27,305 nucleotides of DNA from Candidatus Odinarchaeia archaeon (GCA_029856525.1 JAHQXC010000009.1:1-27305), one strand, 5' to 3'; counted from the stretch's first letter, positions 18,544 through 19,236 are shown. Numbers and translations: made by a program. The notes: generated by a model not told the origin, from the sequence alone.

Positions 18544-18663
18544 AGCATTCCACCGTGAACTTAAATATAATAATCAATTTTTTCATATTCAAAACTCTTC
18601 ATTCACATATTTGTGTTTTTCTAGATAATATTTATATCTGTGACATGCTTTATATGTATTTCA

Positions 18664-18714
18664 ATGCGGGTGGAGGCCTCCCTCCGTTCCGCGTAATAAA
18701 CCCCGGGTGGGAGG
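18664..18714 (+). promoter_or_regulatory. Candidate translational riboswitch (RBS-sequestering pseudoknot) in the leader of the QueT-family gene
   Basis: P1 atgcggg/tccgcgt; loop cctccc is complementary to gggagg (18709-18714) next to the ATG; A-rich linker aataaa; TATA tttatatc at 18631-18638. Confidence 0.5.
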
Positions 18715-18717
18715 ATA

Positions 18718-19236
18718 ATGAATAAAACTCTTATAATTTCTTTAACAGCTGTTTTCTCCGCTCTTTACGCTGTAGGCGTTATTTTACTAGCCCCTATCTC
18801 TTACGGTGAAATACAGGTTAGAGTGATAGACTGCCTGATCCCTTTAACCGCTGTTTTCGGTCTACCTGTTGCGTTAGGGGTAACCGTAGGGAATATAGTT
18901 GCAAACATATTCGGAGGTCTAGGTGTTTTAGATATAGTAGGCGGTTCAATAGCTAATTTAATCGCTTCCTCAGCTGTTTACTATATAACAAATTTGAAAA
19001 AAACCTCTATTAATAGAAGATTAGAGGCTCTTATAATATATTCTTCATCGCTTCTGGCAGCGATTATAATAACTTTAATAGTAGGCTTCTATCTAGCCCT
19101 GATTTTTTCAGTTCCAATCCCTGTGATGATGTTAAGTATTTTCTCAGGCTCTTTTATTTCAATCACACTGCTCGGCGGAACTCTTACAGTTATACTCCGT
19201 AGATCAGCTTTTATTAAAAATATTTTAAGCCGTTAA
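18718..19236 (+). CDS. queT: QueT family (COG4708/DUF988) transporter, ECF S-component type
   Basis: APISYGEIQVRV...GVTVGNIVAN.FG.LG.LD...G pattern; about 5-6 TM segments; substrate not demonstrated. Confidence 0.8.
   Translation: MNKTLIISLTAVFSALYAVGVILLAPISYGEIQVRVIDCLIPLTAVFGLPVALGVTVGNIVANIFGGLGVLDIVGGSIANLIASSAVYYITNLKKTSINRRLEALIIYSSSLLAAIIITLIVGFYLALIFSVPIPVMMLSIFSGSFISITLLGGTLTVILRRSAFIKNILSR

Follow-up and report, generated by a model that had tools for sequence, protein, structure and literature searches.

A conserved riboswitch-like RNA in the leader of archaeal queT, with preQ0 as its inferred ligand

The window, i.e., the whole stretch of 27,305 nucleotides of Candidatus Odinarchaeia DNA analyzed here (GCA_029856525.1, JAHQXC010000009.1:1-27305), carries on its + strand at 18718-19236 an open reading frame of 172 aa, which was identified as QueT by its match to PF06177 (E 1.8e-27, 96.8 bits) and thus belongs to the transporter family proposed for it in the first-pass annotation. 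It is the single QueT match obtained by homologue search in the window's genome, an assembly of 1.32 Mb, and its neighbours are a HEAT-repeat gene, transcribed divergently from it, and an alcohol dehydrogenase gene in convergent orientation. An identical gene order around queT is found in a closed record of the same genus (GCA_001940665.2 / CP091871.1; 1,418,269 bp), which we take to be Candidatus Odinarchaeum yellowstonii LCB_4, so that the host of the window would be an Odinarchaeum-like Asgard archaeon. The spacer in front of queT is uneven in composition: G or C make up 34 of the 51 nucleotides of 18664-18714 but 29 of the 120 spacer nucleotides outside this segment, the GC content of the window as a whole being 38.5%. 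It comprises the following parts, given together with the gene.

18631-18638, + strand: TATA-like box tttatatc, the inferred queT promoter, recognized by sequence and genus-level conservation; promoter function is inferred
18660-18730, + strand: the whole motif as delimited by covariance model R1 (G000:C93, 54.8 bits, E 2e-14)
18664-18670, + strand: 5' strand of helix P1, AUGCGGG; pairs checked, outer pairs covary
18672-18685, + strand: local hairpin P2, GGAGG (18672-76) pairing with CCUCC (18681-85) around the loop CCUC
18677-18682, + strand: anti-Shine-Dalgarno (anti-SD) segment CCUCCC, 5' strand of the pseudoknot, perfect complement of 18709-14
18684-18686, + strand: CCG, conserved and able to pair with CGG 18704-06, which would lengthen the pseudoknot; partner inferred
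18688-18694, + strand: 3' strand of P1, UCCGCGU, pairing with 18664-18670
18695-18700, + strand: A-rich linker AAUAAA, the equivalent of loop 3 of an H-type pseudoknot; ANAAAY is conserved before CCCGG
18701-18706, + strand: CCCCGG core (YCCCGG), candidate ligand-pocket and junction nucleotides; near-invariant, role inferred
18709-18714, + strand: Shine-Dalgarno (SD) sequence GGGAGG, 3' strand of the pseudoknot, ending 3 nt before the ATG at 18718
18718-19236, + strand: queT, the putatively regulated gene (PF06177, 172 aa)

Most of these elements had been pointed out in the first-pass annotation and were retrieved where it had placed them, namely the upstream TATA box, a leader of about two-thirds GC, the stem atgcggg/tccgcgt with its seven pairs (A18664-G18670 with U18688-U18694, two of them G.U), the perfect complementarity of the loop CCUCCC to the GGGAGG next to the start codon, the linker aataaa and a competing ggagg/cctcc hairpin. 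A mini-hairpin acc-ccg-ggt, also suggested there, had to be abandoned for lack of conservation; what is conserved at this place is YCCCGG, of which the CGG may instead extend the pseudoknot with CCG 18684-86.

As to the promoter, TTTATAT was present 24-28 nt upstream of GCGGG in 4/4 genomes of the genus, and a second TATA-like stretch at 18648-56 was not conserved in these four genomes. Archaeal promoters have an established geometry, and by this spacing the TATA box suggests a transcription start near 18660, about 23 nt past the box, so that the RNA would form the extreme 5' end of the mRNA; this start is inferred in the absence of start-site data. A 56-aa ORF with a GTG start (18555-18725, +) overlaps the leader and is almost certainly spurious, since it runs through both the promoter and the conserved RNA.

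Taken by itself, the sequence folds no better than its shuffles (z = -0.54), hence any evidence beyond chance has to be comparative. P1 and P2 together are predicted at -17.9 kcal/mol, of which P2 contributes about -10 kcal/mol, compared with -13.8 kcal/mol for the helix of the pseudoknot by itself; on these modelled energies the two states would be comparable and roughly balanced in the window. No T-run occurs 3' of the structure, wherefore transcription termination is unlikely and a terminator was rejected. A k-turn or L7Ae site was likewise rejected, as the motif type of Asgard family f12 lacks the GA dinucleotides.

Comparison of homologous leaders, which the first-pass annotation had recommended as a search for covariation, revealed that the motif is conserved before QueT across archaeal phyla. 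It has a constant order of GCGGGUG, a variable loop, CCG, 1-3 nt, UCCGC, the ANAAAY linker, YCCCGG and an SD-bearing tail, with 0-23 nt between its end and the start codon in the relatives first compared and 0-25 nt over all the lineages named below. In the homologues examined, the paired segment of the tail either is or overlaps an SD of the GGAGG or GAGGUG type. The core GCGGGUG (18666-18672 in the window) is nearly invariant, and CCG is present in all true motif instances, with CUG in its place in six Nitrososphaeria sequences from the covariance model, where a G.U pair is kept. YCCCGG is nearly invariant even among covariance-model matches that were not forced to contain it by a pattern, the exceptions being ACCCGG (L294), UCACGG (L291) and CCCAGG (L338).

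Upstream of QueT the motif was encountered in four Asgard families, in Bathyarchaeia, Nitrososphaeria and Methanomethylicota. A pattern search of 400 genomes of the phylum matched 32 genomes, compared to 3 matches for a reversed control. When one genome per GTDB species was scanned, 47 of the 120 matches listed stood before QueT, 2 before queE and 3 remained unresolved; the other 68 are read as chance matches because they had neither the CCG element nor a downstream QueT or QueE homologue, and those with titles were bacterial contigs. Titled archaeal hosts among the matches listed were Bathyarchaeia (about 30), Nitrososphaerota/Thaumarchaeota, Methanomethylicota, Promethearchaeota and Hermodarchaeum, and the match titled Promethearchaeota (L057) is G004, a relative within the order of the window's genome. 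With a stricter pattern on metagenome contigs, 108 of 120 matches listed preceded QueT and 4 QueE; of the remainder, 3 lay at contig ends, 2 were followed by an unknown membrane protein and 1 by an ECF-S-like fragment, and 2 were chance matches. Such pattern scans fix the conserved core and return only the matches listed, so that their counts are biased.

Covariance model R1 was derived from 76 distinct instances and leaves the core free. Its match at 18660-18730 is the sole one in the window's genome. Among Asgard archaea it was found in 27/151 genomes, belonging to only four families (4/4, 3/3, 17/19 and 3/3 genomes), and among Nitrososphaeria in 16/121 genomes, where every locus lay before QueT or QueE except one without a clear ORF. 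No motif was found upstream of the QueT-like genes (26-33% identity) of Asgard families f17, f5 and f15, a result drawn from two + strand loci that were read (L010, L014), the pattern scan and R1. Among the matches listed, the motif has so far been found only in archaea (TACK and Asgard), which implies no statement on other lineages.

Two individual loci may be mentioned here. In L077 (DATKTP010000091.1), titled Candidatus Deferrimicrobium sp., motif and flanks are identical over about 90 nt to those of the Asgard locus L039 / G146, and it is probably an archaeal contig mis-binned in a MAG with a bacterial label. A weaker copy in Asgard family f12 (L338, G134:C10:25269-25346, 33.8 bits) has UCCGU for UCCGC and CCCAGG for CCCGG, with G.U pairs that keep P1 and the pseudoknot; such a variant is either tolerated or in decay.

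Structures were compared on a 76-sequence alignment (A2) combined with anchored parsing. While the five inner pairs of P1 are invariant in the 76 sequences, its first outer pair is formed in 74/76 by five pair types (GC 39, AU 24, CG 4, GU 4, UG 3) and its second in 53/76 by six types. The covariation score of these outer pairs amounted to 0.238 versus 0.088 for shuffles (0/500) and 0.04-0.07 for slid controls. Columns of P2 were 88.9% paired in the 76 sequences, and double changes such as G-C/A-U and U-A/G-C occurred in 3/4 of its aligned pairs. For the pseudoknot, duplexes of loop and tail had a mean of -16.5 kcal/mol with cognate partners versus -14.45 kcal/mol with permuted ones (0/5000), and the longest contiguous helix measured 6.42 bp on average versus 5.83 +/- 0.07 for permuted partners. 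The 212 instances contained 95 haplotypes of the pseudoknot helix, among them the loop/tail combinations CCUCCC/GGGAGG, CCUCC/GGAGG, CUCGCA/UGCGAG, CCUCUCA/UGAGAGG, CUUCCA/UGGAAG and CCACCUCC/GGAGGUGG; in every lineage the pyrimidine-rich loop segment complements the tail, and both change together.

The gap between cognate and permuted partners is modest because most pseudoknot pairs are SD and anti-SD sequences common to many lineages, and all shuffle tests overstate significance since related sequences are not independent. Furthermore, variation is absent or almost absent from the inner five P1 pairs, CCG and CCCGG, which places their pairings beyond a covariation test. The partner of CCG is therefore an inference, as other G/C pairings are possible, namely of the 5' CGG with the loop CCG and of CGGG with the CCCG of the tail. 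No consistent partner emerged for the GUG, AAAY and CC nucleotides, which are invariant. Helices GGG/CCC and GUG/CAC were rejected as universal, as they hold in some lineages only. In L291 (G400:C11:168929-169000, minus strand) the tail reads AAAUCACGG instead of AAAUCCCGG and the loop GAGUUACC versus GAGUGACC in close relatives, with CCCGG of the tail changed to CACGG; this may be a compensatory exchange of G-C for U-A hinting at a tertiary pair, although it is a single case.

P2 shares nucleotides with the 5' strand of the pseudoknot, and the two helices are mutually exclusive. The first-pass annotation had set an RBS-sequestering pseudoknot against a local hairpin as competing states, and compensatory changes in P1, in the pseudoknot and in the alternative hairpin bear this out. 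As both exclusive helices covary, both are maintained, as a switch requires.

Of the matches listed, about 90% are followed by QueT and about 5% by operons of the type queE-queC or queE-GAT-QueC. The motif is followed by queE and then queC in L081 and L178, and by queE and then a GAT-QueC fusion in L143 (256-1704, -) and L274 (2-802, -). The GAT-QueC type is an archaeosine synthase in Crenarchaeota. In L290 the motif stands before a second queE paralogue, and this locus belongs to a Nitrososphaerota MAG (G400) with three copies of the motif, located before queE-queC (L081/L293), the second queE (L290) and queT (L291). The second queE of this MAG is followed by an ORF of a FolE/QueF-like T-fold and by riboflavin genes. 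The five best NCBIfam matches of the QueE-like radical-SAM genes were all QueE (E about 1e-30); these calls lie below the curated cut-offs of NCBIfam and are backed by the operon with QueC. Association with both QueT and queE-queC points to the preQ0 pathway as the regulon. Bacterial preQ1 riboswitches, which control queCDEF, queT and yhhQ, have a regulon of the same kind (PMC11625349).

Two motif copies from metagenomes (L205:246-980:+ and L261:2767-3492:-) lie before a multi-pass membrane protein of about 240 aa without Pfam match. Both proteins are 37% identical (E 9e-34), and the gene in L261 is followed by QueC. Kinship of this family with QueT was rejected (hhalign probability 1.6%); it may represent a new family of 7-deazaguanine transporters.

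Conservation, gene association and covariation, together with the lack of any match to a known family (see below), establish a conserved archaeal riboswitch-like RNA with three helices, and the operational features of a riboswitch are met, i.e., a structured leader, covarying helices, a conserved unpaired core and a pathway-coherent regulon. It could nevertheless be asked if sensing is involved at all, since SD-masking hairpins are common, the fold of the single sequence is unremarkable as reported above, and a constitutive leader might merely tune translation or mRNA stability, or serve as an RNA thermometer in thermophiles. Under this assumption a near-invariant core of about 20 nt across phyla, restriction to genes of the preQ0 pathway and two exclusive helices which both covary would all be unexpected, and for a thermometer the hosts, to judge from record titles, come from soil and sediment as well as hot springs. 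We regard a leader without sensing as highly improbable, and retain the metabolite-responsive switch.

ArcTGT is the archaeosine tRNA-guanine transglycosylase, and its substrate in archaea is preQ0. It is strongly matched in the Odinarchaeum-like genus (E about 1e-85), whereas true QueC or QueE was not found in its own genus and order (G000-G003 and G005), the closed CP091871.1 included, their QueC and QueE matches being only weak, partial ones to other PP-loop and radical-SAM proteins. With ArcTGT present and no true QueC or QueE found, the genus appears to rely on salvage, and QueT looks like its only route to preQ0. Judged from gene content, Odinarchaeum-like archaea with their small genomes thus appear to import preQ0 through QueT and to be unable to synthesise it. 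The preQ0-pathway regulon and the use of preQ0 by ArcTGT both favour preQ0, which is most likely the ligand; this supports the first-pass annotation, which had inferred a switch for a preQ0/preQ1-like or new ligand.

An RNA of the same architecture could, however, respond to another compound, such as preQ1, queuine (Q base), the archaeosine base, guanine or some other purine-like compound carried by this QueT subfamily. Support may be drawn from bacteria, where preQ1 gave its name to the known riboswitches of queT and queCDEF, which bind preQ0 too (PMC11625349). The substrate specificity of archaeal QueT is untested, besides, and the two copies before an uncharacterised membrane protein leave room for a different cargo. 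Yet the genes queE-queC and queE-GAT-QueC behind other copies have preQ0 as their product or substrate. It is preQ0 that ArcTGT inserts, and preQ1 is not known to be an intermediate of archaeosine synthesis. A ligand other than preQ0 is accordingly judged unlikely.

The direct binding of a small molecule might also be dispensed with, if an RNA-binding regulator or an archaeosine enzyme toggled hairpin and pseudoknot as a translational operator, for which conserved unpaired nucleotides and a two-state fold would fit equally well, ligand data being absent. Neighbouring genes differ, however, among the Asgard, Bathyarchaeia, Nitrososphaeria and Methanomethylicota genomes that were sampled, the loci read showed no conserved gene for a regulator next to the motif, and a compact H-type pseudoknot with A-rich linker and pathway-specific regulon follows the pattern of small-molecule riboswitches. 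A protein operator seems quite improbable to us.

We therefore return to a riboswitch for preQ0, and consider it probable that 18660-18717 is the 5' leader of queT mRNA and acts as a preQ0-sensing translational OFF-switch by sequestering the SD, with ligand, pocket, regulation and transcription start inferred. P1, consisting of GCGGG/UCCGC and 1-3 covarying outer pairs, would enclose the loop which bears the anti-SD. With little ligand, P2, proposed as the ON-state structure, would occupy the anti-SD, leaving the SD free and QueT translated. In the other state, the anti-SD and CCG would pair with the downstream CGG and the SD to form an H-type pseudoknot, in which the A-rich linker crosses P1, possibly docked in its minor groove as inferred by analogy, and the SD GGGAGG is hidden. 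A 7-deazaguanine, most probably preQ0, would bind at the junction of P1 and pseudoknot, where the pocket is inferred to consist of near-invariant unpaired nucleotides, namely the U and G that follow GCGGG, the 1-3 nt of the junction, and AAAYCC. Binding would stabilise the pseudoknot, and an ample supply of the base would in this way turn down translation of the uptake gene; the biosynthesis genes queE-queC of other archaea would be repressed likewise. Neither binding, probing and expression data nor mapped starts are available, and no RNA-seq run was listed for this DNA, so that the identity of the ligand, the pocket and the direction of regulation remain inferences, and SD-dependent initiation in Odinarchaeia is an assumption.

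In its widest form, the interpretation describes a structurally new, archaea-specific preQ0 riboswitch class in Asgard and TACK archaea, governing salvage (queT) as well as synthesis (queE-queC), in which the ON hairpin and the OFF pseudoknot are both under selection. Towards this reading, taken as a whole, we incline with some reserve. A full-text literature search brought up no account of the motif or of a QueT or preQ riboswitch from archaea, and the motif most likely represents a riboswitch class not yet described in archaea, from which few such classes have been reported, mainly ones shared with bacteria (PMC5473149). If this holds, these lineages, Odinarchaeia included, would have their first native class of metabolite riboswitch, and the use of SD-sequestering sensors for metabolites would be demonstrated in the prokaryotic relatives of eukaryotes, the TACK and Asgard archaea. 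The RNA folds that recognize 7-deazaguanines would be joined by a fourth, independent one, useful for studies of convergent evolution and ligand design, and a genomic marker of preQ0 salvage versus synthesis would be gained for uncultured archaea. With only about 60 nt, the RNA is short enough for a direct test of the hypothesis in vitro.

It remains to place the motif among known riboswitches. The first-pass annotation had recognized no preQ1 consensus in the sequence, and the Rfam models agree: cmscan with Rfam 15 gave no family match in segment 18500-18800 of the window (E<=10) or in 8 homologous loci totalling 59 kb (E<=1), with noise-level snoRNA matches at most, and RF00522, RF01054 and RF02680 (preQ1-I, II and III) were all unmatched. 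A divergent member missed by these models would still have some points in its favour. With preQ1-I (RF00522) the archaeal motif shares the H-type order, in which P1, the loop and P1' are followed by an A-rich linker and by a 3' strand that pairs back with the loop, a G/C-rich P1 of about 5 bp, a 3' strand which is or abuts the SD, a place before genes for 7-deazaguanine synthesis and transport, which it would control, and the expected logic of SD occlusion stabilised by the ligand, so that it has the topology of this class. It differs in size (about 50-60 nt versus about 34 nt), in its long pseudoknot helix of 9-11 bp with bulges, in the competing local hairpin inside the P1 loop and in its core of GCGGGUG, CCG, UCCGC and AAAYCCCGG. 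In preQ1-I, moreover, AC or UC immediately 5' of the 3' strand of P1 provides the C that pairs with the ligand (PMC11625349), a feature which is not met, UCCGC being preceded by CCG and 1-3 variable nucleotides (U, A, UGC, AGU, CGA).

PreQ1-II (COG4708 or queT motif, RF01054) resembles the archaeal RNA in its position upstream of queT and in the inclusion of the whole SD in the pseudoknot helix. It contains a U-rich triplex, whereas the archaeal motif has no U-rich strands and an H-type order of helices with a hairpin in loop 1. PreQ1-II forms an HLout pseudoknot of about 77 nt with P1-P4 and is limited to Bacillota (PMC11625349); neither its model nor this architecture was met. PreQ1-III (RF02680) was likewise discovered upstream of queT, and the SD in its 3' tail docks with a hairpin loop carrying the anti-SD. 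With about 100 nt and five helices, an aptamer apart from the expression platform and an occurrence in Ruminococcaceae and gut metagenomes (PMC11625349), it is a larger RNA, and the archaeal motif is too short for its five-helix form and does not match its model. Failing the defining features of sequence, size and architecture, the motif belongs to none of preQ1-I, II and III and we do not file it as a member; an overlooked relative of these classes is given hardly any credit, in spite of the topology, the SD role and the association with queT. Archaea are unmentioned in a 2024 review of the preQ1 family (PMC11625349). The archaeal riboswitches of a 2017 survey were mainly TPP and fluoride classes with rare cases of FMN, Mg2+-I and guanidine-II (PMC5473149). 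These are shared with bacteria and sparse in archaea (PMC5473149) and devoted to other pathways, in which they differ from the motif before queT, and would resemble it as cis-acting mRNA leaders that sense a metabolite or an ion.
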